Positions 2,927 to 48,900 of a stretch of 64,000 bases of DNA are shown here, one piece after another (the first letter of the stretch is position 1; the number at the start of each line of letters is the position of its first letter). The stretch is from the IMG/VR virus record IMGVR_UViG_3300045988_160093, one strand, 5' to 3'. Under the pieces are notes generated by a model. It ran no database searches and was not told where the DNA came from. It was given only the letters and a program-made list of their open reading frames with translations. The position numbers and the translations under genes are program-made. Source of the stretch: a virus.

Positions 2927-2929
2927 AAC

Positions 2930-4272: not shown

Positions 4273-4283
4273 TTGTTTCGGTT

Positions 4284-4511
4284 TCATAGTTCTTCAATTT
4301 CTTTTTCGATTTTTTCTATGCATCTACTCACTGCCAAGATGAACTCACTTTCTAAAATGTCGGGCATTATCAATCCTTCCCCTCCAATCCTTTTAGTCCA
4401 TAAAAAAAGTTTCTCTTCCTTACAAGGTCTGTTAAGATAACGTGAAATACTTTTAAGACCTTTCAAAGACCTGTTCAGTTCGACCGCTTTTTCAAATTCT
4501 TCTCTTGTCAT
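4284..4511 (-). CDS. hypothetical protein
   Basis: 75-aa ORF. Confidence 0.45.
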   Translation of the reverse strand: MTREEFEKAVELNRSLKGLKSISRYLNRPCKEEKLFLWTKRIGGEGLIMPDILESEFILAVSRCIEKIEKEIEEL

Positions 4512-4519
4512 ATTCTATT

Positions 4520-32374: not shown

Positions 32375-34003
32375 ATGGTGAAGAAAGAGAATACGCAGAC
32401 TCCGTTAGGTACGGTAAATCCGTATGATGGCAATACGACTCCGAAGGATAATGTGCAGAGTGGTACGACTCAGGCGCCTAATTTATGGGCTAATGGAGGC
32501 AGTGTTTTGGGCAATGCAGTGAATAATGTTTTCGGTGCTCCTCAGACTGCTGTGAATACTCAGGCTAATGTTCAGCAGACGGGGAATGTGGTTCAGAACG
32601 GAAACACAGTTTCAAATGTAGATGCAACCTCAAACGGAAACGTAGTTCAGAATGCAGGTGCAACCCCAAATGTGGGCGCAACGCCAAACGGGAATGCCGT
32701 TGCAGAAGGTAAGGATGGGAATAATGTTCCGACCGTCACCGATGCTAAGAATGGGAGCGAAGCTCAGAATGCAGTCACTACTACTGAAGGGAACGAAGTG
32801 CAGAGTGGAGATAAATCTACTGAAGGAAATCCGCAAGAGGATGTAAAGCAGCCCGAATTGAATGAAGACGAGCAGGCTTTGCTTGCAATGCAGAATGCGT
32901 CCATGGAGGATTATAGGAAGAGATACAAGCAGGCGAGTGACATCACGCAGGGGGTTTATGATTATCTCAATGGTGGTTCCGATGCAGAGGAAGAGCCTTA
33001 CAAGAAGAAGAACGAAAGCAAGAAGAAACTTTTAGCATTGGCTGACGCATTGAGACACATCGGCAATCTTTTCTACGTAAACAAGGGTGCTACTCCACAG
33101 CAGTTCAATTCGCCTGTCTTGATGCAGGAACAGCGATACCAGCAGGAGAAAGCCGAAAGAGAAAAGAAGAGGGCTTCACAAGCTAAAGCGGCAATGGACA
33201 AAGCCAAGATGGATGCTGATGCAGCGTATAAGGATGCGATGCTTGGTATGAAGCAAAATGATTTCATGCGCAATGTCTATAACGATAATAGAAGATATGG
33301 TCTTGACAAGGATAAGTTCGCCTGGCAGAAGGATAAGGACACGCAGAGTCTCGGTTTGAAGAAGCAGGGACTTGAAGAGACCGTAAGGCACAACAAGGCG
33401 AATGAGGCACAGGGCAGGGAAAGGAATGCCATTGCCCGTCAGAGATTGGCTATAGCGAGAGCTAAGGAGGCGAGAGAGGCGAGAGATGCAGGTCCGGGTT
33501 CACTCGGTAAGGGCAGCAGAACGTTTGTTACTCCACAAGGTGTCGTATATACATTGAGCAGAAATTACTTGCAGCCTGCAAACATTGTGACCATCTATAA
33601 CAAGATGAAAGAGCATGGTTGTTTGAAGAAGGGCAGCGAGAATACATATAAGTTTGATTCAGACCTTTTGGAGCAATTAGGATTGGGAGGATCCGGCGGC
33701 TCTACGGCAAAGATGCTCAGCGCGATATTGTGTTCGGCTACTGATAACCCGACGGCACATTATTGGCATTGGAAGTTGGGTTCACCGCTGGGCTACGAAT
33801 ACGAAGGTGGTATGAGTGACGAGCTGAAAGCTAAATTGGTCGGTACAGGCAAACCAAGGAAAGCAGCAAGCAAGCCAAAGCCAGCAAGCAGACCAGTGAG
33901 TAAGTCAGTGAGCAAGTCAGTGACTAAGCCAAAACCGAAAAAGTCTGCAAACCATCAGAATGGAGGAAGAAAGGGAAATAACCGTAGTAATTTGGTAATA
34001 TAA
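32375..34003 (+). CDS. low-complexity virion protein candidate
   Basis: 542 aa. The N-terminal region is Asn/Gly/Val-rich with repeats (NGNVVQN, GATPNVGATPNGNAV), the centre is Lys/Arg-rich, and the tail is KPKPASRPVSKSVSKSVTKPKPKK. The stop is 1 nt before the giant ORF start. Confidence 0.55.
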   Translation: MVKKENTQTPLGTVNPYDGNTTPKDNVQSGTTQAPNLWANGGSVLGNAVNNVFGAPQTAVNTQANVQQTGNVVQNGNTVSNVDATSNGNVVQNAGATPNVGATPNGNAVAEGKDGNNVPTVTDAKNGSEAQNAVTTTEGNEVQSGDKSTEGNPQEDVKQPELNEDEQALLAMQNASMEDYRKRYKQASDITQGVYDYLNGGSDAEEEPYKKKNESKKKLLALADALRHIGNLFYVNKGATPQQFNSPVLMQEQRYQQEKAEREKKRASQAKAAMDKAKMDADAAYKDAMLGMKQNDFMRNVYNDNRRYGLDKDKFAWQKDKDTQSLGLKKQGLEETVRHNKANEAQGRERNAIARQRLAIARAKEAREARDAGPGSLGKGSRTFVTPQGVVYTLSRNYLQPANIVTIYNKMKEHGCLKKGSENTYKFDSDLLEQLGLGGSGGSTAKMLSAILCSATDNPTAHYWHWKLGSPLGYEYEGGMSDELKAKLVGTGKPRKAASKPKPASRPVSKSVSKSVTKPKPKKSANHQNGGRKGNNRSNLVI

Positions 34004-34004
34004 T

Positions 34005-37000
34005 ATGGCAGACAAGATAACGCAGGTATATAATGCCTATAAGGCAGACGGAGCAACGCGAGCTCAGAGCGAGCAGCAGTTCCGTAATTGGATGTACGGC
34101 GACAATTATCGCCGTGGAGTATGGAATGATTTGAGAAAGCAGGGTGCTCAAGTAGGTACGTTTGAGCATTTCACCGAAGCTTTGGGCTATAAAATGAATC
34201 CCAAAGTGAAGAGCAAGGTTGCCAAGCAAGCCATTCAGTATGGTGCACCGAAAGTCCCTGACAACTGGGGGCAGATGGATATGGGCAGGACATTCGCCAA
34301 TGACGAGATGGAGCAGCAGCTTGAAACACAAAGGAACAATCAGGCTTCGTCCAATGCAAAGAAGACCGGAAGTAACGAGCCTATAGCTCAAAGAGTGAAA
34401 GAAAAGTTGAATAGGACACATCTGAAGGAGGCGAGCAAGTCTGGGACTATTATGAATCCGTTGACAGGTGAGCCTATAAACAATGTTCCTACTTACAGGG
34501 AAAAGAAAGAAGGCAAGTACTGGAATCCTATTACGGAAACAGATATGGGTGATGCTGTACTTGACTGGAGTACTACTGATGCCAATGGCGATAAGGTGGC
34601 GCAGACTCAAACCAAGCAGAACTTTGAGGCTGATGCAGCGGCAAAGGCAATAGCAAATGAGCTGACTAAAACTGCTGACTATAAGGGGAAATGGGCTAAA
34701 TTTGATAGCGAATTTGAAAAACATCACGGACTTGTGTATCATCCTGCCGAATACGAAGAGAATAAGAAGTATAGAGAGGAAGGATTTGACGATAATTCCA
34801 AAATGCTGTATGAGAAGTATGCTCCAAAGCTTGAAGATGTAAGCGCACTCCTCGGCAGTAAGAACGCAAAGGAAGCCATTGTAGCGGCGGCTTCAAAATT
34901 AGGTATAACACCTGATGATTTTCTGAATCGCTATGTCGTCCCGGCAACTGAAAAAGCCAATGAAGAAGAATACCATAAGCGAGGCATAGAACATTTTATG
35001 CCAAAGAACGCTTGGGAAAATATGAAAGCCAATTTCGCTGTGTCGTCTTTGGGTAACGCAGCAAATAAAAGCTTGGTTCCAGAGGAATATCAGAACATGC
35101 GCAATGAAGCAGTAGAAACGTATTCTGATGCGAACAGCAAGACGCTTGACGAGAAAGGTGTGTTCAGTAAGGAAGGAATACAGGCACTTGGACGAAATAT
35201 TTCCGGAGGTACGGCAAGGGTTATGCCGGATGCCGTAGGTTTTGTTATTGCCGGCGCTGAAGCGAAAGGTGTTGTCAAAGGTCTTGAAATAGGATGGAAA
35301 GCTCTGCGAGGAACAGGTTTGGTAACAAAAGTACTTGGCAAGGCAGTTCCAAAGACATTGACTTCTCTGACGAAGAAATATGGCGCACAGACAGCAGGAA
35401 GAATCCTCAATGCGGTGAACAATGAAAGCATAGGAAGCTTCATACAGGCTAATGCAAGGCAGTTTGCGCAAGGTTCCTTGACAATGGGTATTTTTGAAGC
35501 AAACAATTACCTTGCTACAGAAGGTCGGGAGAAAATAAAAGAAGGCAAATGGGGGGAGTTTGCCGAAGGACTCTACACTTCCGGAATGTCAGGCTTGGGT
35601 ACAGGTATGCTATTTTCAGGAATAGGTACGGTAACTGGCGCTCTTGGTCGTAACCTTGGTGTAACAGGCAGAGAGACAACAAGACTTGAAAAACTAAAGC
35701 ATGGAACTGAGAAAGCCTTGTTCTCTGCCTCGGCATTATTTGTAGAAGGACTTGGTTTCAGGGCAGAGGATCTATATGACGAAGCAAAGAAAGGCGAGCT
35801 TACTTTTGGTAGCGTTCTTGAAAACGGAGGAAAGGGAGTTATCGACAAGATAACAATGGATTTAGGAATGGCGGCAGGTAAAGGAAAACGCCCCAGTCTA
35901 AAACAAATGGTAGTCGGTGCGGTTGCCAACACTAATCCACACGTTAAATTCTCTGCCGTAGAGAAGAACGAGCTGATGAAAAGTACAGGAGGCAAGAGCT
36001 TGTTTGAAGCGTTGGATGGTATAGCGGAAGGCAAGAATGTTTCTCCTGTGTACAGAACGAAGATGAGCGAGTTTTTCAATGATCCGAACATCTCAAGACG
36101 TACAAAGCAAAAGGTGGCTTATGTTGTAGGTAAAACTATAGACACCAATATGCCGAGGACGGAAAGGGTTTCTATTTCACAAGGAACATCAGGGACACAG
36201 GAGGTCCGCACGTATTCCAAAGACGGAGAACTACTGACTGTCGATGTATATAAAAATGCAGAAGCCGCAGAAGTGGCAAAACAGGAAATCTACGCAAAGA
36301 GAGACAAGAATGATTTTATCGCATTGTGGGTAGACAGCCTGAAACCGACACAATCTGAGAATAATACAGCCTTGGAAAACACAGCAAAAGAGCTGGGCTA
36401 TGATGACGTAGGCGTTTTCCTGGCAGACTGGGATGAAGCTCAGAAAAGCAGCGATGCGGATTTTCTTTCAAAAGTCTCAAAGACGATAAACGAAAACATC
36501 GGAAAGATTGTTGCAGACAGACACAAGCAGATGCTTGATGCAAAAAGAGCAATCAATGAGGAATACGATGTAGATATAGACAAGGTCTTGGATAAAAACC
36601 CCGTTATGTGGAAAGACAAAGAACGGGAAGCAGTAAAAGAGTTGGGCAGTCGTTTGAAGAAAGGTTTTTCAGACAAGAACGATGAGGCTCATAATAATGC
36701 TATAGCCCGTCAGGACGGTGCTGATTTGTCAGAGCAGACTGAACTTGAGGATTCAGAAAAAGTCATTGAGTCATCGCAAGCAGTCAACGAGAGACTTGAT
36801 TCGGCAGTCGAGGCATGGCGAAAGATGCAGGAAGAGAACCCTGACCTTGCAGAGTGGATGAAGAACAATCCTGATTCGACGGTGGAAGAGCTAAGAGAAA
36901 ACTTCGGTGATTATGTAGCCGATGCGTATATGGAGTTAAGCAATGCCAAGGCTATGCGAGACGGTTTTATTCAGAATACCGGCGAAAAGATTGAGGATGC

Positions 37001-40000
37001 CGTAAAGAACCAAGTGGAGCAGGCGAAGTTTACCGGCACCATGCAGAATAAGGAAGGCTCAAAAGTTGTAACAGATAACAGTGTTACTGTTTTTGCAGAC
37101 AAAGACGGAAACGAATACACACTTGTTGGCGGAGACGTCATTGTTGATTCGGCAGGAGACGGTTCGTATAGTGCAGGAAAATCGGGACTTGTAATATTCC
37201 GTGACAAGGATGGTAATCTTATTCAGCGTACAAACTTCGATGGGCTGAATGAAGTAGGGACTTTCTCATTGGAAGACTATGCCAACCGCATCCGCACAAC
37301 CCTGCAGGAACAGAAGACAGCCGAGATTCAGAGTACCGAAACACCGTTGCCGGAGAGTCAAAATAAAGAAACGCCGAAAGAAGAATTACCATCCGAGGCG
37401 CCAAAGAGTGAAGAACCGAAAGAAGAAGATTTTATCCGAAACTCCAATTCGGAAGAAAAGTTATCGTCAGAAAAAGACGAATGGGGGAATCCTCTGATAA
37501 AGGCAAGTGACGGTAGTGTAGACTTCGGTGAAATAAGTGAAGGTTACGGGCTACAGGCAGCTCCTATCAGACTTAGCCTTGGTGAGAATAAGAAGAACCC
37601 CGAAACAGGCAAGGATGAAGGTTATGGCTTGTTGCATATTGAAGCAAGGCATGGTGATCAGATAAGGAAAGCCGGTTTTAATTCTATTGAAGAGTTTGTA
37701 GAATCAATAGCCAGAGACTATACGGAGATACGTGAGGGGGTCCAAATAGGAACTACACAGACTTATCTCATTGTCAAAAAAGACGGTCATGCAAATACTC
37801 TTTATATCGAGCTTTCGCGTGACGGTAAATATTGGAACGTGAACAGCGCAGGAATATTCAAGGAGAAATATGTAAACAGAAAAAACGAAATCAAGCCTGA
37901 ACCCACGGTGGGGAGTAGTACAAGCACCGATACTACTGGAGTTAATCACGGCCTTAACGAGGGTGCAACCGTCACCAGCGGGAATTCTCCCATGATTTCT
38001 GATAGCAAAGATACGACAAAATCCTCAGACTTGCAAGAGGGTAATGAAACTTTAACATTCAAGAATACAGAAGCAGCCAAGGAAGAGTCGAATTACGAGA
38101 AGAACGACATTCCTATGGACAATGAGGGTGAGCCGGTATACGAGCAGGTGCCCAAGGAGAGGACTGCACAGGATTTGTTTGACAAGTTGGGCGATGGCAA
38201 TGTAGCTCACAATTACGCTCAGATAAGAATAGAAGGAGCAGAGAAAGAGCTGAAAGAAGCCAAGAAGAAAGAGCCGAAGATAGGTACGAAGATAAACGAG
38301 TATCTAAAGAAGAAGCAGGAATATGAAGACAGAGTGAAAGCCGCAGAGGACAAGGTGGCTTATTGGGAAAGCGTGAAGGAGGAAATAGAGAAGCTTACCC
38401 ATACCACACCCGAAGAGCTGAAAGAAGCACAGGAAGAACTTGACGGAACGGCAGCACGGGAAGAGTACAAGAAAACGGTAGGCGAGACACAGCCTGCAGA
38501 CGGCGTGTCTTTGGCAGCTGAGTTTGTAGTAGACGCAAGGATTACACCTGAGAGTTTCAGAAAAGAGACAGGTCTGAGCGCTGCTGATCAGCGGACGTTT
38601 GTCGGTATGATTGCAGGTGCCGAGAAAGGCGGCAAGTCTATAGAGAGACTTGGTGAAGAACTGGTAGAGTATGACAACGCGTATTATGGCGGAGCGTATT
38701 TCCATGGAGATTCCAACGATGCAAGGAGTGCCATCATTTCCGCTTTGATGAGTGCCAAGTCGAGAAAAGGTCTGAGAGAGATGGCTCAGCCCGATATGGA
38801 GAGAGAAGTCCGTGAACGTGCACGGATGAGAGATGAGGCTTATCACGAGAGATACGGCATGGATTATGAGGAATATTTGTCATATTCTGAGCAGGAGATG
38901 CCACATATATTGGGAAAATTGAATAACTTTGACGAGCAAAAGTATTTGCAGGACAAAGCAGAAGAAATTACTAATCAAATAAATAAAGAACATGGAAAAA
39001 CCGATAGAGAAAATGACTCCTCAAGAGAAGAGTCAGTACATGGTGCAGGCGATAAAGTATTGCCTGAAGAAAGGATTGATGACCGAGGAAGAGGTGAAAG
39101 CCCCAAGGAACATGGAGGAAGAGAAAAGGCTGAGCGCCGAGGCAATACTGAGGATGCGCCTCTACATGAAACGCCATCCGGAGGAGAAGTAGAGAAGGGG
39201 GAACGTAAAGAAGAAAAACCGTCAGACCCATCCGACGCAGCCGAAGGAATGCGAGGAGCTGCCGAGCAATTCCATGAAGAAAGAGTGGAGAAGGCACGCA
39301 AGGCGTATGAGGAAGCCAAGGCGAGCGGTGATGTGTCAGAGACGAAACGCACGAAAGACGAATACAGGAAAGCCCTTGACGACAAGTTGAAGGCGCAGGG
39401 TATTGGTCTTATTGAGAGGAGGAAGACTATAGCCAAGGAGATGGGTGAAGAACCGAAGGTTGAAAAGCCTAAAGGTGAAGGTCCGAAAGTCGGTGAGAAG
39501 CAGTGGGAGGATATGACACCTACGGAGAGAGCCGAGAAAGCCGATGCCGATCCATTGACCGAAGACGAGATACGCAGCGATGAAGACAACAAGGAGCTTG
39601 CAGCAGCGGCAATAGCCTATCTCAATGGTGATAAGAGTTTGTTAAACCAAATAGCTTATTTAAAAATTTACGGAAATGTTAGGAGTAGACATGAGGATGT
39701 TCCCGGCAATAGCGGAACAGAAGACACATCACAGCTGGCTGCAACCGATAATGGAGGCGGCGAAGGAATGGAGCTGGAGTCAGGACGAGGCAGCGGAGGA
39801 ACTGCTGAGCCGATGGATAGAGGAGCAGGCGGAGAGACTGCACCCGGAAAGCAAGAGAGCGGAGAGACTGGTAAGGGAAACGCTGATACTCCTGCTGGAG
39901 AAGGAAGCCATATCGAAGGTGAAGGAGGAGCACCCGGACTGGGCGGACTACCTGCCGGAAGTGGTGGACGCACAGGAAGCGGCAATGCTGGGAGCACGGG

Positions 40001-43000
40001 AAGTGTGGGCAGAGGACGAGGACGAGGAAGCGGCAGCAGACCTTCTAAGTCAAATGGAAAGCGGAAGCCTGCAGCCAAGCAAGGAACTACTTTCCCGAAT
40101 AGCAAAGGGCGAGATGTAAAGCAGGAGACAAAAGATGCGAAAGCGGCGATGTTGGCGGCTTTTGCAGAGTTCAACAAGAGGAACAAGAAGGACAAGAATA
40201 TCCTTTCTTCATCCTTCCTGCTCGGTTTAGAAAAACATCTTCCAACAGCCGAAGCTCTCGAATATCTGCCAGACGTGATGAAAGCGACAGGCAGATACGG
40301 TGTTGCCCTTATCGGTGAAGGAATCTACAAGACAAAGGAATGGATAAAGAATGTACGTGAAGCAATCTTCGATGTAATGAAAGAAGGTGGTTTCTCAGAT
40401 GCAGACATCGACGAGTATATCAGAGAGATGTGGCACATGCCTTGGGAGATGGATGGGGAAACCCACAAGATAGGCGAATGGGCAAGCATCAAGGGGTATG
40501 CTGGTCTTAGAGAGAGCCTGAAAGAACCTTTGCGTAAGAAGTTTGACAAGCAGGTACTTGCGGAGCCGACGGAAGTAAAGGTGGGTGACAGAAAGAATAT
40601 TGAAGAGACTTTGCCTTTCCTTCTACCTCAGCAGCAGGACGATGTGCTGAAAGCCGAAACACAGTTCTTTGATGAGAGCCATAAGGACAAAGCCCACGCC
40701 AACGGCAAAGGATATATGTTTACCAACGGTACTGGAACGGGTAAGACGTACACAGGACTTGGCATCATCAAGAGAATGGTGAAGCAGGGCAAAGGAAGAA
40801 TCCTTATCATTACTCCAAGCCAGCAGAAAGTAAAAGACTGGATAAATGACGGAAAGAACCTTTGCCTTGACATCAGAGACCTTGATGATTGGGCAAACGA
40901 GCGAGGCAGCACTGCCACGAACGAGAAAGGCGATGGTGTTGTGATTACAACCTTTGCTAATTTCGGCACGAACAAGAGGCTGCTTGAAGACCAATTCGAT
41001 GCGATTGTCTATGACGAGAGCCATAGAATCATGGAGAATAAGAATGCCACCGAGACAGCACGAAGCAGACAACACTACATGCTCAGCAACAGGAACGAGA
41101 GTTACGCCTTGATGAGATTGGAGGAAATCAATCCTGACTGCATGAAGATGCGTGGTCTTGCAGAAGACTTTGAGGATGCGCGAAAGAAAGAGGTAGAGCG
41201 AATACAAGCCGAATACCGAAAGGAGCATCCGTCAGAGAATGAGAAGGAGATGAGATTCCATACATCCAAGTCGCTGCCAAAGGACATCCATTCTTTTAGT
41301 ATTTCAGACAAGGCGAAATTCCCCGAGCTTGGCAAGATATACGAAGACTATATCAAGGCGAGAGACTATTATATTAATAATGTGAAGCCAAAACTGGAGA
41401 AGCAGGCAAAGGAATCCGTAGACAAAACAAAGGTGGTGTTCCTTTCCGCTACTCCGTTCAATACAAGAGAGAACATAGAGTATGCCGAAGGTTATCTCTT
41501 CTCATACCCAGAGAGAAATGAAATGGGGCAGAGCGGCAAGACGCAGTTCTTCCTTGAACATTTCGGTGCAGGATACAAATACCGCTATCACAGACTGGAG
41601 AGCAGTACATCAAATGCCGAAGCACTCGCCAAGCAGGAGATAGCTTTCAGTGACTGGTTGCAGAATGACTTGGGTACGATGAGCGGTAGGGTGATCGACA
41701 GTCCGTTTGACTATTCAAGAGATTTCCCTACGGTATCAGTAGAACACGCTGACGAGTTCAATACAGCCTGCGAGGAGATTTCACGAGACAAGATATTCGG
41801 TGACGCATACAGGAAGGTGCTTGGTGACTACAATTATGGTAGCGCCCTGTTTGAGACAATGAAGGTGTCAGCCCTCCTACCGAGATTGAGAGAACACCTT
41901 GCAGCAGGTCGAAAGATAGTAATCTTCCATAGGCGAGTGACGAGCAAGGAACCATTGAAAGCCCCGTTCGGAATGATACTTGGCGAGCAGGCAGAGCAGA
42001 CCATCAAAGCACTGCCGAAGGAAAAGCAGCCGGAAGCAAGAACCCGTCTGAACGAATTGAGGGACAGGTATTCGGGATTGCTTGAGTGGGAGAAGACCTT
42101 GGATTTCAGTATGCCGAGAGAACAGCTTGCAAAAGCTTTCGGAGAAGACAACGTGTTGTATTTCAGCGGCAGCGAGAACAAGAAAGTGAAGAGTGAAGCC
42201 GTAAAGCAGTTCAACGACGACAACAGCGGCAAGAACATCATTGTGATACAGGAAGCGAGCGGTAAGGAAGGTATCTCCCTCCATGACACCACAGGCAAGC
42301 ATCAGAGAGTATGTATCACTTTGGCTTTGCCTCAGAGTCCTATCACAGCCCTGCAGATAGAAGGAAGAACATACCGAATAGGCAACGAGAGCAATGCCAT
42401 CTTTGAATATCCTGTACTTGGACTTACAAGCGAATACAACCTTTTTGCAAGCAAGTTCAACAGACAGGTGTCGACGACTGAGAACCTTGCCCTTGGTAGC
42501 CAGGCGAGAAACCTAAGAGACAGTTTCGCAAGAGGCATCGAGGAACATAGCGGTGTTGTCCCCATTGACCAGCAGGGCGTGGGTGGCAAGGAGTTCGATA
42601 AAGGTGATGCCAACGAGAACGACCCGTTTGACAATGCAGTCCTTGACTACTATACCAACCAAAGGTTGAACAAGAACAACCGAGAGGGAGTAGACTACTT
42701 CCCGACCCCCGAACCCCTTGGCTACAAGATGGTGGAATGGGCAAATATTGGAGAGGGAGATTCGGTATTGGAGCCGAGTGCCGGTCATGGTGCGATAGCG
42801 AGATATGTTCCACAATCAAACGAGCTTGTGGCTATAGAGCCAAGCATGAGCCTGTTTGCAAAGCTACAGATGAAAGCAGGAGGCTTGGGCAGGAAATTCC
42901 AGAACGAGACCTTTGAGGCATATCATATAAGCAACAAGCATGATACAATCGTGATGAATCCACCATTCGGACACGCAGGAGCCACAGCGATAGCGCATAT

Positions 43001-46000
43001 AGAAAAGGCGTTCGGACATTTGGAGGAAGGCGGACGTATGGTAGCCATCATCCCGAGGGGTGCGATGGACAAGAAGTTCGACAAATGGTATGACAATGAG
43101 AAGACCGCGGCAATGCGAGCCGAGGTGGACCTTCCTGATATAGTATTCCAGCAGGCAGGAACATCGGTAAGATGCAGAGTGGTAGTCGTTGACAAGATAA
43201 CCGACTCTAAACTCCGTGAGCAGGCGCATATGGAGAAGGCGGATTTGAGTGGTCATTACGACAAGATAGAAGATTTCTTCAACGACCTGCGAAATATAGA
43301 AGTCCCCGACAGGATCATCGATACCAACTTCAAGATGCAGAAGATGAGCAAGAGTGCAGTCAAGAGCTTGAAGGAAATCAGGGATGTATGGTCAGCAGAT
43401 GTTGACAAGGACGGTGTGCACGTCAGGACAAGCAGCTGGATGGGTTACGACATCAGCTTTACGGGTAGCGAAGACCCGAAGCGATGGAAGGACAAGATGG
43501 CGGCGACTTATGACAAGTACGCCCAGATGGAGAAGTCGGAATTGAGAGAAGGCAACAAAGCCGTGTTCGGTGAGTTGAAAGAGCTTGCATGCAAACTTGC
43601 AGGAATGACCGAAGACGAGATGAGAAGGTATCTCGTAAGCAAGGGGGCAGGTAGTGTAAAGTTCCGCAAGAACGACAATCTAACCCCCGAAGAGCGCCGG
43701 TCAGAGGAGCGCATGGAGGAACATCATGTCGAAGTTGCCAAGGCGGCGGAGAATCTGAATACGAAAGTTAACGTGTGTGTGGACATCAATGATGTGACGA
43801 ATGCGGAGGCGAGATCAGCTATAGAAAGAGGTGAGAAAGTGAAAGCTTGGTACGATACCCGAACGGGAGAGGTGCACGTTTATCTTCCAAATGTCACAGA
43901 CAAGTATGACGCACAGATGAGCGTAGCCCACGAGGTGGTAGCCCACAAGGGAATGAGAGGACTCCTTGGTGAGGAAGGCTATCGGAGTATGATGCGCAGA
44001 ATGTACACACACCTTTCCAATGAGGAAGCGAAGGAGGTGAACGAGCGCATGATGAAGAACGGATGGGACTTCTATACAGCAATGGACGAGTGGGTGGCAG
44101 ACAAGGCAGAGGAAAGCGTGTTCACACCAAAGTATGTAGTGATGAAAGACGGTCTGCACCGATACCCATTGGATAAGGTATTCCATATCGTGACGGAGGC
44201 TATGCACGATGTAGGGTATAGGATTAATCCGAACGTGGACGATGTGAAGTACTGGTTGTGGGCGAGCAAGAAGGGATTGAAGAACGGCGATGCCTACACG
44301 GAAATGAAGCGCAACTCGTTCTTGTGGCGACTGAACCACAATACATCGAATGACGGAATTGAGAACGGAGAGTTCGTGGAAACAGGCGGAGTCAGATTCA
44401 GTAATGGAAATAGTAAGTTGAATGGCGAAGATTCAGAAAAATTATTCGCATCTTTGCAAAACAAAAAAGGAAAGGAATATTATGACACAGTTACAGAAAT
44501 CGCAAGAAGAGTTGTCGAACGAAGAAACGGCAAGGCAACAGTTCTTGAAGAATCCAATGGAAAATCGGAGAGTGATACTAATGAGAGCTTCTACGGAGGA
44601 TTTAAAAGTGTTGCTCACTGCGCTGCTTCAATCATCACACATGACGTTGAAAGAAGCGTTTATGCAGATGTCGCGAACAGGGAAAATAAAAGCCGCGGGT
44701 CTGAATCCGCTGGAGAAGGCTTATATGCAAACATTGACAAGAATGTACGGTCACAAGGACTTGGAGCAGAGAACAAGGAGGGGTTGGCTAACCGAGTCAA
44801 CAGAGAAATTTTCAGCAGACTTAAAGACTGGGCTGAGCAAAACCACGCTTGGCTTGATAGACGAAATTTTGGAAAAAAATATCCAACTTCCAATAAAATA
44901 GGCGAAGGCGAGGAAGCAGAAGTATATTTATCAAAAGACGGTAAGAGCGTACTTAAAATCATTCATAATGATACTTATCTAAATCCTGTAGGAAGCAAAC
45001 TTGATGAACTTGCATATGAGAATATAGCATTGGGTGATAACGAGCGTAAGGTTATCGGTTTCATGAAAGACCCGTATGCTTTCAATGATAATATGCTTAT
45101 TCTTGTTGAACAGCCTTATGTTGAAGGCAAAACCGTTGATGAAATTTACGGAGGAGACACTCCCGAAGCCTTGGCTTTTATAGACAAGGTTATGAAAGAT
45201 AAAGGTTTTGAAGTCAAGGAAACCCCATTTAGCGAAGACTTGGATGATTGGCTTGTGAAGACCTACTACAATAGAGATTTTACAATACGTGACGTAAACA
45301 CGGGAAATGTAATTGTAGATAAAGACGGGAAACCACATGTCATTGATGTTTATGCTTTTATTAATCACGGTGAATTTGAGAAGTATGGTGATAATAGTAT
45401 TCCTGCTAATACTGCTAATTTTGAAATCGATTTCACCAAACCGACAAATAAAAGTGCTGAAAGAAAAGTTAACTCACAAGCAAAGGGTAGTGGCAACATC
45501 CGTTTCCGTAAAGACGACAAGGCGAAGCATGAGTCAACCTTGTTCCGCAAACCCAGTCTTGACAGGAGCAAGAACGATACACCTCTGATGTCAGCGACAA
45601 AGGACTCCATCGACAAGGCACTCAACAATTGGAACGCACGAAGAATAGAATGTTGGACCGACGACAAGCACGGACTGAGAGTATTCCAACAGAAGCTTGC
45701 CGAAGGATTGACGAAAGGCATGAACGACAGTATGGACTCCTATCATGGAGCCATTAACCAAAGTTCCATTGTCAGAGAGAAACAATACCAGTTTGAGACG
45801 AGAGAGCTGAAAACGATGAACGATGCCGTGAAGGAATGTACCCGAAAGCTTGGCGGCGGTATGGAAGGATATGAAGAGCTGAATAAGTATGCCTACGTGA
45901 AGAGCGGTCTTGAAAGAAACAGAGTGTTGTTCGTGAGAGACGCAGCAGAGCAGGTAGACAAAAAAATCATGAAGCTCAACAAAGAAGCCCTCGACAAGGA

Positions 46001-48857
46001 CCCACAGGCGACGACCCTCGCCAAGATGGGAGTTGAAGAGTTCAGAGACGCATTCCATTCAGAAAAAAAGTTCCAGGAAACATTGCTCAATTCCGGCAAG
46101 ATAAGCCTTGCAGAATACTACAAAGCCCTTGACGACTTCATAAAAGGTTTCAGTTTTCCACATACAGGTGACGCAGGAAAGAACGCCTTGATAGACAAGC
46201 TCAATGATTGGTATGCCGACAAGATAGGCGGCAAGTATGACGAGAATGAGAATGACTATTCCGGAATAAGGAAATTCGACGACTTTGACAGTGACGCAGA
46301 AAGGATAGACTACGTGATGAATACGGAAGCCACTTTGGGCGAAGGGTCAAAGAACAAGTTGTGGCAAGGAATAGGCGGAGTGACACGTTTCGCCATAGAC
46401 AACGACTATAATTATGGAGTGATAAGCAAGGATGTTCATAGCAGAGTCTCAAGTATGTTCAGTTGGTATATTCCTATGCGAGGATTCAAGGAAGACACGA
46501 TGGAGGATATGTACGCTTATATGCACAATGAGATTTCCGATGGAGGCAATGTCAGTTCGGTAGTAAAGAGAGCCGACGGACGAACGACACTTGCCGACAG
46601 TCCGTTGGGAACGGCAGCAGCCCTTGCGGAGCGCAGTATCTCAAACGGCGAGGACAACCGCAACAAGCAGAGACTTTACAGACTCGTGAACCAGTGGCTG
46701 AAAGACCACACTACGACCAACGAGGACGGAAAGATAGAACTTACCGAAGAAGCCCCGGCAGTGATCAGTGAGGTGTGGTATAAGAAAGTCACCGACCATA
46801 CGACAGGTGAAACATATTGGGAAGCCGTAATGCCGGATATAGACGGAGAGAAGGACCCCAAGCAGATACGCGCGAAAGTGGAACGCTTTGAAGAGAATAT
46901 GCGCAATGCAGAGAAAAACGGCAACGCTACACGAACACTGCAGAAGGGAACGTTTGCCAAGCCATTCAAGGTGGCGAAACACAAGAACGAGCACGTTGTC
47001 TTTGTCAATGTAAACGGAAAGCAGAAGATGATAATCATGCAAGGCAATCCACGTCCTGCACAGGCAATCAACGGAGATACGGCAAGCGATGTGACAGCAG
47101 GCAGGCTGATGAGAGGAATGAGTGCGATGTTCACATCATACAACATAACGTTCAGTGTCACGAATACAAGCAGAGACACCTTCTTCGCCAACAACAACGT
47201 TGCAATCAGAGAAAATGCTGCATATTACGCTCGCTTCGTGAAGAACCAAGCCCTTATGGGAGGTTCTATGCTTCAAGGAACCGTTATGATGAACATGCCG
47301 AAGGTGAAAGGAATGTACTATCAGTTGTGGTCAGACTACAAAAAAGGCAAGAAGCTTACAGGCAAGTACGGTAAATATTTCGAGGAGTATATGAACAACG
47401 GCGGCAAGACAGGCTTCGTACAGACCAAGACGATAGAAGACTTGGAGAAACATATCAGAAATGAAGCTACGCAAAAGATGCTGTCAGCCTCGACGTTGGG
47501 CAAGGTAATGAGTAAGGTGCCCGAAGTGATAGAAGCCTTGAATGAAAGGTCAGAGAATATGAACCGCTTTGCTTGCTACGTGACAAGCAGGGAGATGGGA
47601 AGAAGCGTCATGCGCAGCGTTTCAGATGCGAAGGAGGTCAGCACGAACTTCAACCGCAAGGGTTCAGGAAGCAAAGCCTTCAAAGGAACGAACGCAAAGG
47701 CATGGGAGAAATGGCAGGGATGGTTATATGATAGAGCCAAGAGCTACTATCTCTTCTTCAATGCCGGAATGCAGGGCTTGTCTGTGCTGACCAACAACTT
47801 TGTGAGGCACAAGGTGAAGACCGCGGCCTTTGCAGTAGGAATCCCGATATTGTTCGCGAGCAGTATAATACCGGCCCTCAACAGTTGGATAGCATCCTGC
47901 TTTGACGAGGACGACCAGTATGACAACCTTAGCGAGTGGGAGAGGAGAAACAATATCTGCATATACGCAGGACATTCCAACTGGGTAAAGGTGCCGTTGC
48001 CGATTGAGCTGAGAGCCTTCTACGGCTTTGGAGACATAGCGTTAGGTGTGACAAATCCAGCCTTCCGTTCAGAAAAAGGATTGTGGCTTGACATGCTGTC
48101 ACAGGTGACGCAGATACTACCAGTTGACTTTATGGGAGAAGGCGGAGATTTTTGGGGAGCTTTAATGCCAGATGTTGCCAAACCACTTTACCACGTTTGG
48201 GTTAACAGAGACTGGACCGGCAAGCCTATATACAAAGACTACGATTATCTGAAATACGAGCCCGAATACCAAAAGGTGTTCCAGGGAGAAAACGAGTGGT
48301 TTGTATCGTTCAGCAAATTTATAAACGAGATGAGCGGCGGTAACGAGCACGTGAAAGGTTCTCTTGACGGAAAATGGAACAACCCTGCAATATGGGGTGA
48401 AATCATCACCGGATATGGAGGCGGTGCATTGTCGGATGCCATACGTACAGGAAAGCTGGCAACGAGAGTAGCCACATGGAATTGGGAAGATTTCTCCACA
48501 AGAGAAGTACCGATGGTAAGAGCCTTGTACAGTTCGGCAACCGAGAAAACAAAATACTACAGGTCGCTCAGCAAGTATGCCCATTATAAGGAAGATGCCG
48601 ACAAATACCTGCATGACTTCAAGGCAAATCTGAAAAGCGACAATCCGTTGTATGTGATGAAGGCAATCAGCGATATGAAGCGAGAGTCGCCGGAGTTCGT
48701 GAGGATGGCGAAAATCCACGGGTTTGAGAAGAGTATCAAGGACCTAAAGAAAATCGCCAACAACGAGAAGATTCCGAAGAAAGCCCGCGATGAGGCAAAA
48801 GAGCTCATCAACCAAGAGAAAGTAAAACTCGTGAAAGAATTTGAAAGTGACGAATAG
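34005..48857 (+). CDS. giant (4950 aa) polyvalent protein: helicase + methyltransferase + zincin + kinase-like modules
   Basis: Uninterrupted 14.85-kb ORF with multiple recognisable catalytic motifs (listed as sub-features). Sits in the structural half and is translationally coupled to two upstream genes. Confidence 0.9.
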   Translation: MADKITQVYNAYKADGATRAQSEQQFRNWMYGDNYRRGVWNDLRKQGAQVGTFEHFTEALGYKMNPKVKSKVAKQAIQYGAPKVPDNWGQMDMGRTFANDEMEQQLETQRNNQASSNAKKTGSNEPIAQRVKEKLNRTHLKEASKSGTIMNPLTGEPINNVPTYREKKEGKYWNPITETDMGDAVLDWSTTDANGDKVAQTQTKQNFEADAAAKAIANELTKTADYKGKWAKFDSEFEKHHGLVYHPAEYEENKKYREEGFDDNSKMLYEKYAPKLEDVSALLGSKNAKEAIVAAASKLGITPDDFLNRYVVPATEKANEEEYHKRGIEHFMPKNAWENMKANFAVSSLGNAANKSLVPEEYQNMRNEAVETYSDANSKTLDEKGVFSKEGIQALGRNISGGTARVMPDAVGFVIAGAEAKGVVKGLEIGWKALRGTGLVTKVLGKAVPKTLTSLTKKYGAQTAGRILNAVNNESIGSFIQANARQFAQGSLTMGIFEANNYLATEGREKIKEGKWGEFAEGLYTSGMSGLGTGMLFSGIGTVTGALGRNLGVTGRETTRLEKLKHGTEKALFSASALFVEGLGFRAEDLYDEAKKGELTFGSVLENGGKGVIDKITMDLGMAAGKGKRPSLKQMVVGAVANTNPHVKFSAVEKNELMKSTGGKSLFEALDGIAEGKNVSPVYRTKMSEFFNDPNISRRTKQKVAYVVGKTIDTNMPRTERVSISQGTSGTQEVRTYSKDGELLTVDVYKNAEAAEVAKQEIYAKRDKNDFIALWVDSLKPTQSENNTALENTAKELGYDDVGVFLADWDEAQKSSDADFLSKVSKTINENIGKIVADRHKQMLDAKRAINEEYDVDIDKVLDKNPVMWKDKEREAVKELGSRLKKGFSDKNDEAHNNAIARQDGADLSEQTELEDSEKVIESSQAVNERLDSAVEAWRKMQEENPDLAEWMKNNPDSTVEELRENFGDYVADAYMELSNAKAMRDGFIQNTGEKIEDAVKNQVEQAKFTGTMQNKEGSKVVTDNSVTVFADKDGNEYTLVGGDVIVDSAGDGSYSAGKSGLVIFRDKDGNLIQRTNFDGLNEVGTFSLEDYANRIRTTLQEQKTAEIQSTETPLPESQNKETPKEELPSEAPKSEEPKEEDFIRNSNSEEKLSSEKDEWGNPLIKASDGSVDFGEISEGYGLQAAPIRLSLGENKKNPETGKDEGYGLLHIEARHGDQIRKAGFNSIEEFVESIARDYTEIREGVQIGTTQTYLIVKKDGHANTLYIELSRDGKYWNVNSAGIFKEKYVNRKNEIKPEPTVGSSTSTDTTGVNHGLNEGATVTSGNSPMISDSKDTTKSSDLQEGNETLTFKNTEAAKEESNYEKNDIPMDNEGEPVYEQVPKERTAQDLFDKLGDGNVAHNYAQIRIEGAEKELKEAKKKEPKIGTKINEYLKKKQEYEDRVKAAEDKVAYWESVKEEIEKLTHTTPEELKEAQEELDGTAAREEYKKTVGETQPADGVSLAAEFVVDARITPESFRKETGLSAADQRTFVGMIAGAEKGGKSIERLGEELVEYDNAYYGGAYFHGDSNDARSAIISALMSAKSRKGLREMAQPDMEREVRERARMRDEAYHERYGMDYEEYLSYSEQEMPHILGKLNNFDEQKYLQDKAEEITNQINKEHGKTDRENDSSREESVHGAGDKVLPEERIDDRGRGESPKEHGGREKAERRGNTEDAPLHETPSGGEVEKGERKEEKPSDPSDAAEGMRGAAEQFHEERVEKARKAYEEAKASGDVSETKRTKDEYRKALDDKLKAQGIGLIERRKTIAKEMGEEPKVEKPKGEGPKVGEKQWEDMTPTERAEKADADPLTEDEIRSDEDNKELAAAAIAYLNGDKSLLNQIAYLKIYGNVRSRHEDVPGNSGTEDTSQLAATDNGGGEGMELESGRGSGGTAEPMDRGAGGETAPGKQESGETGKGNADTPAGEGSHIEGEGGAPGLGGLPAGSGGRTGSGNAGSTGSVGRGRGRGSGSRPSKSNGKRKPAAKQGTTFPNSKGRDVKQETKDAKAAMLAAFAEFNKRNKKDKNILSSSFLLGLEKHLPTAEALEYLPDVMKATGRYGVALIGEGIYKTKEWIKNVREAIFDVMKEGGFSDADIDEYIREMWHMPWEMDGETHKIGEWASIKGYAGLRESLKEPLRKKFDKQVLAEPTEVKVGDRKNIEETLPFLLPQQQDDVLKAETQFFDESHKDKAHANGKGYMFTNGTGTGKTYTGLGIIKRMVKQGKGRILIITPSQQKVKDWINDGKNLCLDIRDLDDWANERGSTATNEKGDGVVITTFANFGTNKRLLEDQFDAIVYDESHRIMENKNATETARSRQHYMLSNRNESYALMRLEEINPDCMKMRGLAEDFEDARKKEVERIQAEYRKEHPSENEKEMRFHTSKSLPKDIHSFSISDKAKFPELGKIYEDYIKARDYYINNVKPKLEKQAKESVDKTKVVFLSATPFNTRENIEYAEGYLFSYPERNEMGQSGKTQFFLEHFGAGYKYRYHRLESSTSNAEALAKQEIAFSDWLQNDLGTMSGRVIDSPFDYSRDFPTVSVEHADEFNTACEEISRDKIFGDAYRKVLGDYNYGSALFETMKVSALLPRLREHLAAGRKIVIFHRRVTSKEPLKAPFGMILGEQAEQTIKALPKEKQPEARTRLNELRDRYSGLLEWEKTLDFSMPREQLAKAFGEDNVLYFSGSENKKVKSEAVKQFNDDNSGKNIIVIQEASGKEGISLHDTTGKHQRVCITLALPQSPITALQIEGRTYRIGNESNAIFEYPVLGLTSEYNLFASKFNRQVSTTENLALGSQARNLRDSFARGIEEHSGVVPIDQQGVGGKEFDKGDANENDPFDNAVLDYYTNQRLNKNNREGVDYFPTPEPLGYKMVEWANIGEGDSVLEPSAGHGAIARYVPQSNELVAIEPSMSLFAKLQMKAGGLGRKFQNETFEAYHISNKHDTIVMNPPFGHAGATAIAHIEKAFGHLEEGGRMVAIIPRGAMDKKFDKWYDNEKTAAMRAEVDLPDIVFQQAGTSVRCRVVVVDKITDSKLREQAHMEKADLSGHYDKIEDFFNDLRNIEVPDRIIDTNFKMQKMSKSAVKSLKEIRDVWSADVDKDGVHVRTSSWMGYDISFTGSEDPKRWKDKMAATYDKYAQMEKSELREGNKAVFGELKELACKLAGMTEDEMRRYLVSKGAGSVKFRKNDNLTPEERRSEERMEEHHVEVAKAAENLNTKVNVCVDINDVTNAEARSAIERGEKVKAWYDTRTGEVHVYLPNVTDKYDAQMSVAHEVVAHKGMRGLLGEEGYRSMMRRMYTHLSNEEAKEVNERMMKNGWDFYTAMDEWVADKAEESVFTPKYVVMKDGLHRYPLDKVFHIVTEAMHDVGYRINPNVDDVKYWLWASKKGLKNGDAYTEMKRNSFLWRLNHNTSNDGIENGEFVETGGVRFSNGNSKLNGEDSEKLFASLQNKKGKEYYDTVTEIARRVVERRNGKATVLEESNGKSESDTNESFYGGFKSVAHCAASIITHDVERSVYADVANRENKSRGSESAGEGLYANIDKNVRSQGLGAENKEGLANRVNREIFSRLKDWAEQNHAWLDRRNFGKKYPTSNKIGEGEEAEVYLSKDGKSVLKIIHNDTYLNPVGSKLDELAYENIALGDNERKVIGFMKDPYAFNDNMLILVEQPYVEGKTVDEIYGGDTPEALAFIDKVMKDKGFEVKETPFSEDLDDWLVKTYYNRDFTIRDVNTGNVIVDKDGKPHVIDVYAFINHGEFEKYGDNSIPANTANFEIDFTKPTNKSAERKVNSQAKGSGNIRFRKDDKAKHESTLFRKPSLDRSKNDTPLMSATKDSIDKALNNWNARRIECWTDDKHGLRVFQQKLAEGLTKGMNDSMDSYHGAINQSSIVREKQYQFETRELKTMNDAVKECTRKLGGGMEGYEELNKYAYVKSGLERNRVLFVRDAAEQVDKKIMKLNKEALDKDPQATTLAKMGVEEFRDAFHSEKKFQETLLNSGKISLAEYYKALDDFIKGFSFPHTGDAGKNALIDKLNDWYADKIGGKYDENENDYSGIRKFDDFDSDAERIDYVMNTEATLGEGSKNKLWQGIGGVTRFAIDNDYNYGVISKDVHSRVSSMFSWYIPMRGFKEDTMEDMYAYMHNEISDGGNVSSVVKRADGRTTLADSPLGTAAALAERSISNGEDNRNKQRLYRLVNQWLKDHTTTNEDGKIELTEEAPAVISEVWYKKVTDHTTGETYWEAVMPDIDGEKDPKQIRAKVERFEENMRNAEKNGNATRTLQKGTFAKPFKVAKHKNEHVVFVNVNGKQKMIIMQGNPRPAQAINGDTASDVTAGRLMRGMSAMFTSYNITFSVTNTSRDTFFANNNVAIRENAAYYARFVKNQALMGGSMLQGTVMMNMPKVKGMYYQLWSDYKKGKKLTGKYGKYFEEYMNNGGKTGFVQTKTIEDLEKHIRNEATQKMLSASTLGKVMSKVPEVIEALNERSENMNRFACYVTSREMGRSVMRSVSDAKEVSTNFNRKGSGSKAFKGTNAKAWEKWQGWLYDRAKSYYLFFNAGMQGLSVLTNNFVRHKVKTAAFAVGIPILFASSIIPALNSWIASCFDEDDQYDNLSEWERRNNICIYAGHSNWVKVPLPIELRAFYGFGDIALGVTNPAFRSEKGLWLDMLSQVTQILPVDFMGEGGDFWGALMPDVAKPLYHVWVNRDWTGKPIYKDYDYLKYEPEYQKVFQGENEWFVSFSKFINEMSGGNEHVKGSLDGKWNNPAIWGEIITGYGGGALSDAIRTGKLATRVATWNWEDFSTREVPMVRALYSSATEKTKYYRSLSKYAHYKEDADKYLHDFKANLKSDNPLYVMKAISDMKRESPEFVRMAKIHGFEKSIKDLKKIANNEKIPKKARDEAKELINQEKVKLVKEFESDE
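37470..37870 (+). other. domain with the YGLLHIEARHGDQI motif (candidate nuclease/toxin-type module)
   Basis: A compact globular-looking segment between low-complexity linkers, with conserved-looking His/Arg/His (H at about aa 1211). Confidence 0.3.
40600..42480 (+). other. SNF2/DEAD-like superfamily-2 helicase module
   Basis: Walker A GTGTGKTY (40728), DESH box (41013), SATPF, and C-terminal QEASGKEGISLHD and QIEGRTYRIGN blocks. Confidence 0.8.
42690..43200 (+). other. N6-adenine DNA methyltransferase module
   Basis: Motif I VLEPSAGHGAIA and motif IV NPPF (42957). Confidence 0.75.
43700..44300 (+). other. zincin-like metallopeptidase module
   Basis: HEVVAH (HExxH) at 43929 within MSVAHEVVAHKGMRGLLGEEGY. 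Confidence 0.6.
44890..45400 (+). other. protein-kinase-like fold module
   Basis: G-loop GEGEEAEV, Lys in SVLKI, hinge LVEQPYVEG, catalytic-loop-like IRDVNTGNVIV, and an IDV in place of DFG. Confidence 0.6.
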
Positions 48858-48867
48858 AAACGAAAGA

Positions 48868-48900
48868 AAAAAGGAAGAGTCTTGATTGGCTCTTCCTTTT
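48868..48900. terminator. bidirectional terminator between convergent operons
   Basis: AAAAGGAAGAG-tcttgattgg-CTCTTCCTTTT. Confidence 0.7.

Follow-up and report, generated by a model that had tools for sequence, protein, structure and literature searches.

We analysed a 64,000-nucleotide (nt) stretch of viral DNA (IMG/VR virus record IMGVR_UViG_3300045988_160093; 'the window' below means this whole stretch), in which one open reading frame (ORF) encodes a giant protein of 4950 amino acids (aa). The giant is a further member of the described class of giant phage polyvalent proteins, as had been suggested in an original prediction made from the DNA letters: it carries the hallmark domains LPD38 and Kinase-PolyVal above their curated thresholds, and its domain list joins several unrelated activities in one polypeptide, namely a superfamily 2 (SF2) ATPase, an N6-adenine methyltransferase, Kinase-PolyVal, an HExxxH module, a putative BECR-like domain and LPD38. 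We think it likely, with a probability of about 0.7, that the giant is packed into the capsid and ejected, the conserved C-terminal unit that we call the chassis serving for packaging and/or as a conduit and the upstream modules being delivered as cargo. Gene structure, domain identities, chassis homology and the gain, loss and reordering of cassettes were observed directly. The picture drawn by Iyer et al. 2017 and by the work on phages Bcep22, JC1 and phi24B is unchanged; new here are the delimitation of the chassis, the swapping of modules between close relatives and a motif at the module junctions.

The giant ORF (34005–48857, + strand) starts with ATG, spans 14853 nt (23.2% of the window) and contains no internal stop codon; because random sequence gives about one stop per 20 codons, it is not a chance reading frame. 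The ORF listing and translation thus agree with the single uninterrupted frame, 23% of the window, that was originally predicted, and scripted motif location recovered every peptide quoted with that prediction in its place. That assembly or annotation created the ORF artificially, for example by joining several genes into a chimera, is scarcely credible. The gene does appear split in some relatives, into three ORFs in L004 and two in L010, but the L010 splits and the one between L004_b and L004_c coincide with runs of N in the scaffolds, and the other is a 1-nt deletion. The prediction had itself named a chimera as a danger; in three metagenome assemblies, obtained independently from other samples, the sequence is collinear with the window gene, and cultured phages carry uninterrupted giants of 3633–5553 aa. 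Relative L003 has 92–94% nt identity to the window, crossing the ORF start up to window nt 37417, L010 has 92–95% identity over window nt 38068–58857, extending past the portal gene, and L004/L005 have 65–80% identity along the entire giant gene. The gene is genuine and its limits are correctly set. A megablast search with it against phage genomes gave no match, and an NCBIfam scan gave sub-threshold noise only.

The 1-nt deletion of L004/L005 relative to the window (L004 6075–6105, around window 40500, giant aa ~2163) lies just before the helicase module and leaves a 1973-aa ORF, followed downstream by a second ORF in a different frame. Its sequence is identical in two assemblies, and the split could be a two-gene version, a pseudogene or a frameshift site.

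Domain content of the giant and its conserved chassis

The features of the giant are listed below in window coordinates (pLDDT, predicted local distance difference test score; TM, transmembrane).

34005–37349, + strand: N-terminal region (aa 1–1115), with mildly hydrophobic Gly-rich stretches at aa 399–429 and 528–553
35568–35648, + strand: GLYTSGMSG...GALG (aa 522–548)
37350–37997, + strand: swappable cassette 1, the YGLLHIEARHG domain (aa 1116–1331), a putative PBECR-like RNase
37623–37664, + strand: YGLLHIEARHGDQI (aa 1207–1220)
38952–40304, + strand: Glu/Lys/Gly-rich low-complexity tract (aa ~1650–2100), including GRGRGRGSGS
40008–40037, + strand: GRGRGRGSGS (aa 2002–2011)
40533–42644, + strand: SF2 (SWI2/SNF2 / Strawberry-notch-like) ATPase-helicase (aa ~2177–2880), from Pfam, PHROG and motifs
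42672–43154, + strand: N6-adenine DNA methyltransferase (aa ~2890–3050), VLEPSAGHG ... NPPF
aa 2985–2988: NPPF, methyltransferase motif
43329–43646, + strand: small alpha/beta domain after the methyltransferase (aa ~3109–3214), pLDDT 88–96, conserved in relatives P0034–P0042
43656–43673, + strand: junction motif 1, (G)SVKFRK (aa 3218–3223), in a linker of pLDDT <50 between two confident domains
43689–44294, + strand: putative zincin-like metallopeptidase module (aa ~3229–3430), with HEVVAH, an HExxxH variant
43929–43946, + strand: HEVVAH (aa 3309–3314)
44391–44408, + strand: junction motif 2, GGVRFSN (aa 3463)
44397–45512, + strand: swappable cassette 2 (aa 3465–3836), bounded by GGVRFSN (aa 3463) and GNIRFRK (aa 3832)
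44814–45353, + strand: Pfam match to Kinase-PolyVal (PF18762) inside cassette 2 (aa 3604–3783)
45498–45515, + strand: junction motif 3, GNIRFRK (aa 3832)
45570–48854, + strand: C-terminal chassis (aa ~3856–4950), ~1000 aa long and mostly helical, with a single TM helix and LPD38
47823–47894, + strand: TM helix AAFAVGIPILFASSIIPALNSWIA (aa 4607–4630)
47910–48515, + strand: LPD38 (aa 4636–4837), E 1e-28 to 2e-30, 101–106 bits against a cut-off of 27

The chassis is the part of the giant with the widest distribution. It gave tblastn matches in 334 phage records, from phages of Vibrio, Ralstonia, Burkholderia, Shigella and Bacteroides and from Shiga toxin (Stx)-converting and other phages of Escherichia, and at this length it is about five times longer than the 189-residue Pfam model of LPD38. 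An AlphaFold2 (AF2) model built with 24 homologues is mostly helical (pLDDT 75.6, predicted TM-score 0.71) and matches 78 viral proteins of BFVD at E ≤1e-3 over ~1000 residues, with a top TM-score of 0.70. A typical match is the final piece of a large polyvalent protein that has lysozyme, RelA/SpoT or methylase domains elsewhere. Foldseek found no significant match in the PDB, and the chassis has no solved structure. Just upstream of the TM helix, at aa ~4513–4553, the chassis has an invariant motif, ...RFAAYVTSR..GRS...DAKE.S.NFNRKGSG. Of the hydrophobic segments originally predicted, the C-terminal TM helix stands as the sole strong one (aa 4599–4634, mean Kyte–Doolittle score 2.06), while the N-terminal 'glycine zipper' is mild, at 1.0–1.25.

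In a related 62-kb contig (L011, 1671–7710) the chassis occurs alone, as a 1098-aa gene with LPD38 beside the portal gene, and follows separate genes for a D12-class adenine methyltransferase and an AAA_21/AAA_15 ATPase. The arrangement looks like an 'unfused' layout of similar functions.

Upstream of the chassis, the enzyme modules retain their signatures. The predicted SF2/SNF2-like helicase is confirmed by ResIII (3e-13, 50.5 bits against a cut-off of 22.5), AAA_34, Helicase_C_4 and Helicase_C, and by phrog_10691 (E 9e-243). Its motifs, read from the translation, are intact: Walker A GTGTGKT, VYDESH, SAT and motif VI QIEGRTYRIG. Motif II is VYDESH, further along; the first DESH (aa 2223) stands before Walker A, which corrects an earlier note. 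The NPPF methyltransferase was likewise recovered, through phrog_6263 'DNA methyltransferase' (2.6e-21), with Pfam MTS at 8e-4, below its cut-off; both motif I and motif IV (NPPF) are present. A PDB sequence search with the whole giant returned only one marginal methyltransferase match, and a closer match to the full length of the helicase–methyltransferase is found in Serratia phage Parlo and Klebsiella phage vB_KpnP_ZX1 (35% identity, ~90% coverage). The alpha/beta domain that follows is probably LPD36, a putative assignment that we draw from the 'SWI2/SNF2 ATPase-adenine methylase-LPD36' module described by Iyer et al. 2017.

The zincin had been predicted with an HExxH motif; a metallopeptidase-type motif is indeed present, but its spelling is HEVVAH, that is, the HExxxH variant of zincin-like peptidases which Iyer et al. 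2017 record in polyvalent proteins. The H/E/H residues, the following G and R, and glutamates E3362 and E3369 are invariant in five relatives of 24–66% identity, and the AF2 topology comprises three strands, the HExxxH helix and helices with the invariant Glu (pLDDT mostly 80–93). The module has no Pfam match, a PDB profile search with the alignment gave nothing relevant, and Foldseek of the LPD36-zincin-kinase segment against the PDB gave nothing significant (best anthrax lethal factor, E 0.42). From motif and modelled topology, a zincin-like peptidase is probable. The protein-kinase-like fold is substantiated by Kinase-PolyVal (E 2.6e-15, 57.2 bits against a cut-off of 27), and the ATP-binding and phosphotransfer residues are kept, with the G-loop GEGEEAEV, VLK, RDVNTGN and IDV read from the translation.

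Two regions of the N-terminal half match no curated model. The YGLLHIEARHG domain is a common, strongly conserved module for which no Pfam model reaches threshold: exhaustive HMMER searching found 718 cluster representatives at E ≤1e-3 and 224 at E ≤1e-30, typically 45–60% identical. Most lie inside giants of 2000–6565 aa and some are stand-alone proteins of ~200–350 aa; among the best 150 cluster representatives, 89 are 2000 aa or longer and 22 are 4950 aa or longer, up to a maximum of 6565 aa. The models of the PBECR nucleases (PF18809–18814) stay below their gathering thresholds (PBECR3 at 16.5 bits against a cut-off of 30), and PBECR3 is weakly matched by 3 of 11 relatives of the domain, best 4e-4. 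A PBECR-like RNase (barnase/EndoU/colicin-E5/RelE fold) is a lead here, strengthened solely because relative P0004 holds a recorded PBECR2 module in the same slot. The region before it, aa 1–1115, has just five homologues in a set of 5.8 billion proteins, which was searched with three segments of the giant; it has no Pfam match, and tblastn with the N-terminal 1130 aa found nothing in the phage genome collection. Only aa 3–168 resemble another protein end, the N-terminus of gp55 of Bacteroides phage BKO1-TP3 (E 4e-6). Between the YGLLHIEARHG domain and the helicase, the Glu/Lys/Gly-rich tract is as predicted, with charged residues up to 47% (aa 1651–1800) and glycine up to 19% (aa 1951–2100) in 150-aa windows.

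Exchangeable cassettes and a junction motif

Close relatives of the giant differ by whole modules. L010, with 93–95% nt identity in both flanks, is without window nt 44390–45529, the kinase cassette of ~1140 nt, and the junctions are clean and in frame (L010 10677–10705); this pattern indicates recent gain or loss of an entire predicted effector module. L004 is without the kinase cassette and also without the YGLLHIEARHG cassette (L004_a), and in P0004, where the flanks are nearly identical, a module recorded as PBECR2 takes the place of the latter. In L004_b and P0037 an additional LPD3 module separates the LPD36-like domain from the zincin-like module, and in P0034 and P0039 the kinase comes before the zincin-like module, not after it. 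Distant Bacteroides phages keep the chassis and the zincin-like module and carry other cargo (ddrB-ParB, InPase, ART-PolyVal, PBECR5). The putative effector modules of the giant are, on these sequence comparisons, exchangeable cassettes.

A short motif, G-x-[VI]-[RK]-[FY]-R, lies at all three of the indel junctions of the window giant. Junction motif 1 is the exact point at which LPD3 is inserted in L004_b and P0037 and the kinase in P0034 and P0039; the L004_b insert has one copy at each end (GVRFRM and GEIRFRN, aa 1059 and 1308), and analogous copies occur in P0034 and P0039. In relatives, both ends of the LPD3 and kinase inserts are marked. In gp68 of Bacteroides phage BF1-TP2, four [VI]RFR copies (aa 1547, 1753, 2258 and 2479) bracket ART-PolyVal and the zincin-like module, and PBECR5 starts directly after the second. 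Across the 89 giants of a wider set, the pattern [GDE][VIT][RKH][FY]R was counted 43 times, where shuffled sequences gave 10.0 ± 3.5 (~4-fold). The motif is conserved at the peptide level, because codons differ between copies; a DNA recombination site was rejected as its main explanation, the Arg codons being among those that differ. We also discarded the idea that the strict motif is a general bracket of zincin modules: across the wider metagenomic set, 2 of 45 modules have it in front (0.6 expected), and many of the remaining ones have a different conserved leader. We read the motif as a lineage-restricted, or degenerate, form of junction punctuation.

The giant might even be a 'polyprotein with punctuation', in which the motif would be a cleavage site for the built-in HExxxH peptidase, or a rhomboid-like protease would act at the TM helix, freeing the effectors after injection. 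We put this forward tentatively and think it doubtful. If it were true, the common junction would also permit shuffling of modules between phages, like the VENN and DPxGL motifs of polymorphic toxins.

Neighbouring genes and the proposed ejection role

The giant adjoins terminase and portal genes, as expected from the original placement in the virion half: a P22-type portal (Pfam E 1.6e-33) and a likely large terminase lie downstream of it on the opposite strand, and beyond the portal come putative head/tail-module genes on the + strand, among which some ORFs have tail-fibre PHROG matches. It is thus encoded among the late/virion genes of a portal-terminase phage. The left half of the window holds a tyrosine integrase, a Rha/ANT antirepressor, RecT and an SMC-like ATPase; the phage is temperate, because integrase, Rha/ANT and RecT genes are present. 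The ORF listing of the window contains no candidate for a tape-measure protein, which, together with the P22-type portal and the relatives, indicates a short-tailed phage. The closest sequenced phages are the cultured temperate Bacteroides phages BKO1-TP3, BS-TP4 and BF1-TP2 (portal 34–37% identity), and we propose that the source is a temperate, podovirus-like phage of Bacteroidales. A tRNA search found none.

The surroundings of the giant gene are as follows.

31660–32373, + strand: 237-aa protein, first cassette gene, candidate outer-membrane ejection protein of T7 gp14/N4 gp52 type
32375–34003, + strand: 542-aa protein, second cassette gene, with its ATG 2 nt past the end of the upstream ORF
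48872–48897: hairpin with a 10-bp stem and a loop of 6 nt, bordered by A6 and T4; it follows the stop codon of the giant directly and separates convergent genes
49528–49986, - strand: rhomboid-like protein, 152 aa, four hydrophobic/TM segments; Pfam Rhomboid E 6e-4, 20.5 bits against a cut-off of 22.6

The predicted coupling of the giant to two upstream genes is real, with ORF ends at 32373 and 34003 and the next ATGs at 32375 and 34005. The further claim that both encode internal proteins holds for the first, weakly and as a T7 gp14-type protein; the second is without any match. T7_gp14 is the top Pfam match of the 237-aa protein (profile positions 3–166 of 187, E 6.6e-4) and of three of the five members of its family (best 6.1e-5), and its best PDB profile match is N4 gp52 (9yf4, E 0.13), a gp14-like outer-membrane channel protein. 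It has a hydrophobic Gly/Ala segment near its N-terminus (aa 21–44), and in BKO1-TP3 and BF1-TP2 the small gene that precedes the giant encodes a homologue of it. The 542-aa protein has a low-complexity N-terminus rich in N, Q, G and T, a charged middle, a basic tail and no hydrophobic segment; its link to the virion proteins Bcep22 gp74 and JC1 gp68 is one of position and size only, and BLASTP against these Bcep22 and JC1 counterparts found no similarity. Its first ~170 aa (32375–32900) are rich in Asn, Gln, Gly, Thr and Val with loosely repeated GN.V.N-like units, and are followed by a highly charged region and then a Lys/Ser/Pro-rich basic tail.

Downstream, the hairpin is likely a bidirectional terminator; it was read directly from the DNA and was not listed by a consensus terminator scan. 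The rhomboid-like gene is convergent with the giant gene, with one 208-aa gene in between, and its relatives BF1-TP2 gp59 and BS-TP4 gp8 are annotated as rhomboid. It is speculative that this protein is the processing protease of the giant. The giant's single TM helix holds Gly, Pro and Ser residues (AVGIPILFASSIIPAL); that it is a rhomboid substrate is pure speculation. The 208-aa gene (48905–49531, - strand) and a 253-aa gene (49983–50744, - strand) both match phrog_19255, a family without assigned function, and are likely paralogues flanking the rhomboid-like gene. Elsewhere in the window, a 342-aa protein (1898–2926, - strand) matches Pfam Tad3 with its N-terminal 132 aa (E 3.8e-21, 75.5 bits against a cut-off of 27), which by homology makes it a type I Thoeris inhibitor-type anti-defence gene of the same phage.

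In the mechanism that we propose, the giant would be the large third member of an internal-virion, or 'ejection', gene cassette, whose three translationally abutting genes (237, 542 and 4950 aa) would be expressed late and whose products would be packed in the capsid near the portal. At infection these proteins would be expelled via the short tail, before or with the DNA, in parallel with T7 gp14/15/16 and N4 gp52/51/50. The chassis, with its TM helix and LPD38, would be needed for packaging and/or for an envelope-spanning conduit, and the remaining modules would be cargo delivered to the cytoplasm. There, the SNF2-type ATPase and the N6-adenine methyltransferase may shield or remodel the incoming DNA against restriction, the BECR-like RNase may cleave RNA, and the truncated protein kinase (and the HExxxH metallopeptidase) may modify host proteins; the metallopeptidase would probably also cut the giant into working units. 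Exchangeable cargo cassettes would let related phages carry different effector sets. We infer the cargo activities, their targets and the self-cleavage from what these domain families are known to do and from Iyer et al. 2017. A virion-borne, ejected role fits because the homologues JC1 gp69 and phi24B gp47 were found in virions by mass spectrometry, and N4 gives a mechanistic precedent, with an ejection cassette of a small, a medium and a giant protein, the last of which brings an enzyme into the cell.

Several points weigh against this reading. All of the virion evidence comes from the homologues JC1 gp69 and phi24B gp47, and a protein of ~550 kDa would have to pass through a tail channel. 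In PDB searches, by sequence with the whole giant and by fold with the chassis, chassis and N-terminus resembled neither T7 gp16 nor any solved ejection protein, and no lytic transglycosylase domain was found in the giant with Pfam, unlike Bcep22 gp75 and T7 gp16. The T7_gp14 matches of the 237-aa family are all below the curated cut-off, and the 542-aa protein has no Pfam, PHROG or PDB match, gp15-type proteins included. Among the cargo, the zincin fold is assigned only from motif and topology, and the AF2 model of the kinase cassette is unusable (pLDDT 30–50).

Three other roles for the giant have to be weighed. It could be a functional equivalent of P1 DarB, its helicase-methyltransferase protecting the incoming genome from type I restriction and the other modules being secondary. 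The motifs of both enzyme superfamilies are there and intact, 'DarB-like antirestriction' is a routine annotation of relatives, and the methyltransferase aligns with that of DarB; we nevertheless consider this unlikely. The similarity found by BLASTP is marginal (24% identity, E 2e-4, over the methyltransferase, and a short match near helicase motif VI, E 5e-4) and the domain order is reversed, the helicase-methyltransferase is missing from two chassis-bearing proteins, BF1-TP2 gp68 and gp68 of Shigella phage 75/02 (an Stx giant), and the relative in coliphage PTXU04 is needed even on a laboratory host. An improbable alternative is that the giant is a purely structural ejection or tail-extension protein with decayed, inactive enzyme-like passengers. 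The chassis alone is conserved across distant phages, a conduit role was proposed for gp47 by the phi24B authors, and modules are lost in close relatives without obvious harm. Decay, however, is hard to square with intact catalytic signatures in helicase, methyltransferase, kinase and peptidase, with peptidase residues invariant across 24–66% identity, or with the 45–60% identity of the YGLLHIEARHG domain over hundreds of clusters, which argues for purifying selection.

It is also very improbable, in our judgement, that the giant is made in the infected cell and left unpackaged, as a late or early multi-enzyme of the cytoplasm that would act, during replication, on the DNA of host or phage. 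Such a role would agree with the uniqueness of the N-terminal 1100 aa; yet the gene abuts internal-protein-like genes and sits in the virion module, and purified virions contain homologues that share the chassis.

For a class whose biology is almost untested, the giant provides a well-delimited example from gut Bacteroidales phages. The variants that differ by a whole module (kinase present or absent; nuclease A, B or none) are natural isogenic comparisons for the roles of effectors against Bacteroides defence. The chassis, which occurs in hundreds of phages including Shiga-toxin phages and is essential in one tested phage, is a target for structural work on the delivery of large cargo, and the N-terminal 1100 aa and the YGLLHIEARHG family are two regions still lacking models.

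Comparison with known systems

The original prediction compared the giant with P1 DarB. The analogy holds for the pairing of helicase and methyltransferase and is loose otherwise, identity being 24% over the methyltransferase only and the order reversed. Like the giant, the 2255-aa DarB, which is virion-packaged, has an N6-adenine methyltransferase and an SF2 helicase, and its gene is a neighbour of the portal gene. Unlike it, DarB has the methyltransferase before the helicase and is without the LPD38 chassis, peptidase, kinase or RNase, and P1 is a myovirus with a DarA/Hdf/DdrA/DdrB loading system, unlike the podovirus-like phage of the window. With neither full-length similarity in BLASTP nor a methyltransferase N-terminal to the helicase, orthology with DarB was ruled out.

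The cassettes of T7 (gp14/15/16) and N4 (gp52/51/50) resemble that of the window in uniting a small membrane protein (in the window a candidate), a medium protein and a very large one. The N4 gp50 virion RNA polymerase, which includes a zincin-like domain, is a large protein that carries an enzyme into the cell; the payloads differ, the window giant having neither RNA polymerase nor transglycosylase. PDB sequence searches and Foldseek of the chassis detected no sequence or fold similarity to gp16, gp50, gp15 or gp51. By analogy of position the giant may be described as a T7 gp16/N4 gp50-type protein, one that falls outside that family by tests of similarity.

The chassis itself links the giant to proteins of very different cargo. 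The 'LPD5/LPD38' protein of 933W-type phages, phi24B gp47 (2811 aa), shares it, has a peptidase domain and is encoded at the end of the late operon, behind small genes; at roughly half the length of the window giant, it has LPD5, LPD1 and MuF_C as cargo and is without helicase, methyltransferase or kinase. It is abundant in virions, invisible in cryo-electron microscopy and was proposed to be an encapsidated ejection protein. The 2198-aa polyvalent protein of PTXU04, knock-down of which strongly lowers plating efficiency, matches the chassis model with its C-terminal half (Foldseek E 2.7e-18).

The closest sequenced phages encode BKO1-TP3 gp55 (5553 aa), BS-TP4 gp3 (5391 aa) and BF1-TP2 gp68 (3633 aa), giants which go undiscussed in the paper describing these phages. 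They have the same small/mid/giant arrangement and share with the window the chassis (28–30% identity), the HExxxH module, the 237-aa family and a rhomboid gene nearby. Their cargo is unlike that of the window (ddrB-ParB, InPase and SNF2 in BKO1-TP3; InPase, ART-PolyVal and PBECR5 in BF1-TP2), and none of the three has the kinase or the window's N-terminal region.

In gene order and size, the cassette of 237/542/4950 aa matches gp73/74/75 of Bcep22 (242/532/4602 aa), and JC1 gp67/68/69 follow the same order, the gene for gp69 (4515 aa) taking up 22.1% of its genome. In both phages, ~60-kb temperate podoviruses (Lessievirus), the giant is the last gene of a ~240/~530/giant cassette at the end of the virion module and accounts for about 22% of the genome. 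JC1 gp69 yielded 51 unique peptides from virions purified on caesium chloride, and gp67 and gp68 are virion-associated too. Bcep22 gp75 and JC1 gp69, both 'DarB-like' virion proteins, and Ralstonia phage Heva gp07 (4545 aa) share the LPD38 chassis (E 1e-21 to 2e-28) and, as in the window, have an SNF2-type ATPase and an adenine methyltransferase; only the chassis aligns, the upstream parts being unrelated in sequence. Bcep22 gp75, unlike the window giant, starts with an SLT transglycosylase, has the methyltransferase before the helicase and includes LPD3, and it is without the kinase, the YGLLHIEARHG domain and the window's N-terminal 1100 aa.

The supposition that a protein of this size and combination, especially with the kinase, was undescribed does not survive comparison. 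Kinase-PolyVal and LPD38 were both defined by Iyer et al. 2017 for phage polyvalent proteins, LPD38 as a phage-type domain only and the kinase clade as one that typifies the polyvalent proteins of (pro)phages from Bacteroidetes and Verrucomicrobia; SNF2-type ATPase, methyltransferase and HExxxH peptidase co-occur in the polyvalent proteins described there. With larger relatives in GenBank (5553 and 5391 aa), and with the many cluster representatives of at least 4950 aa counted above, the size and architecture of the giant are unremarkable within the polyvalent class.

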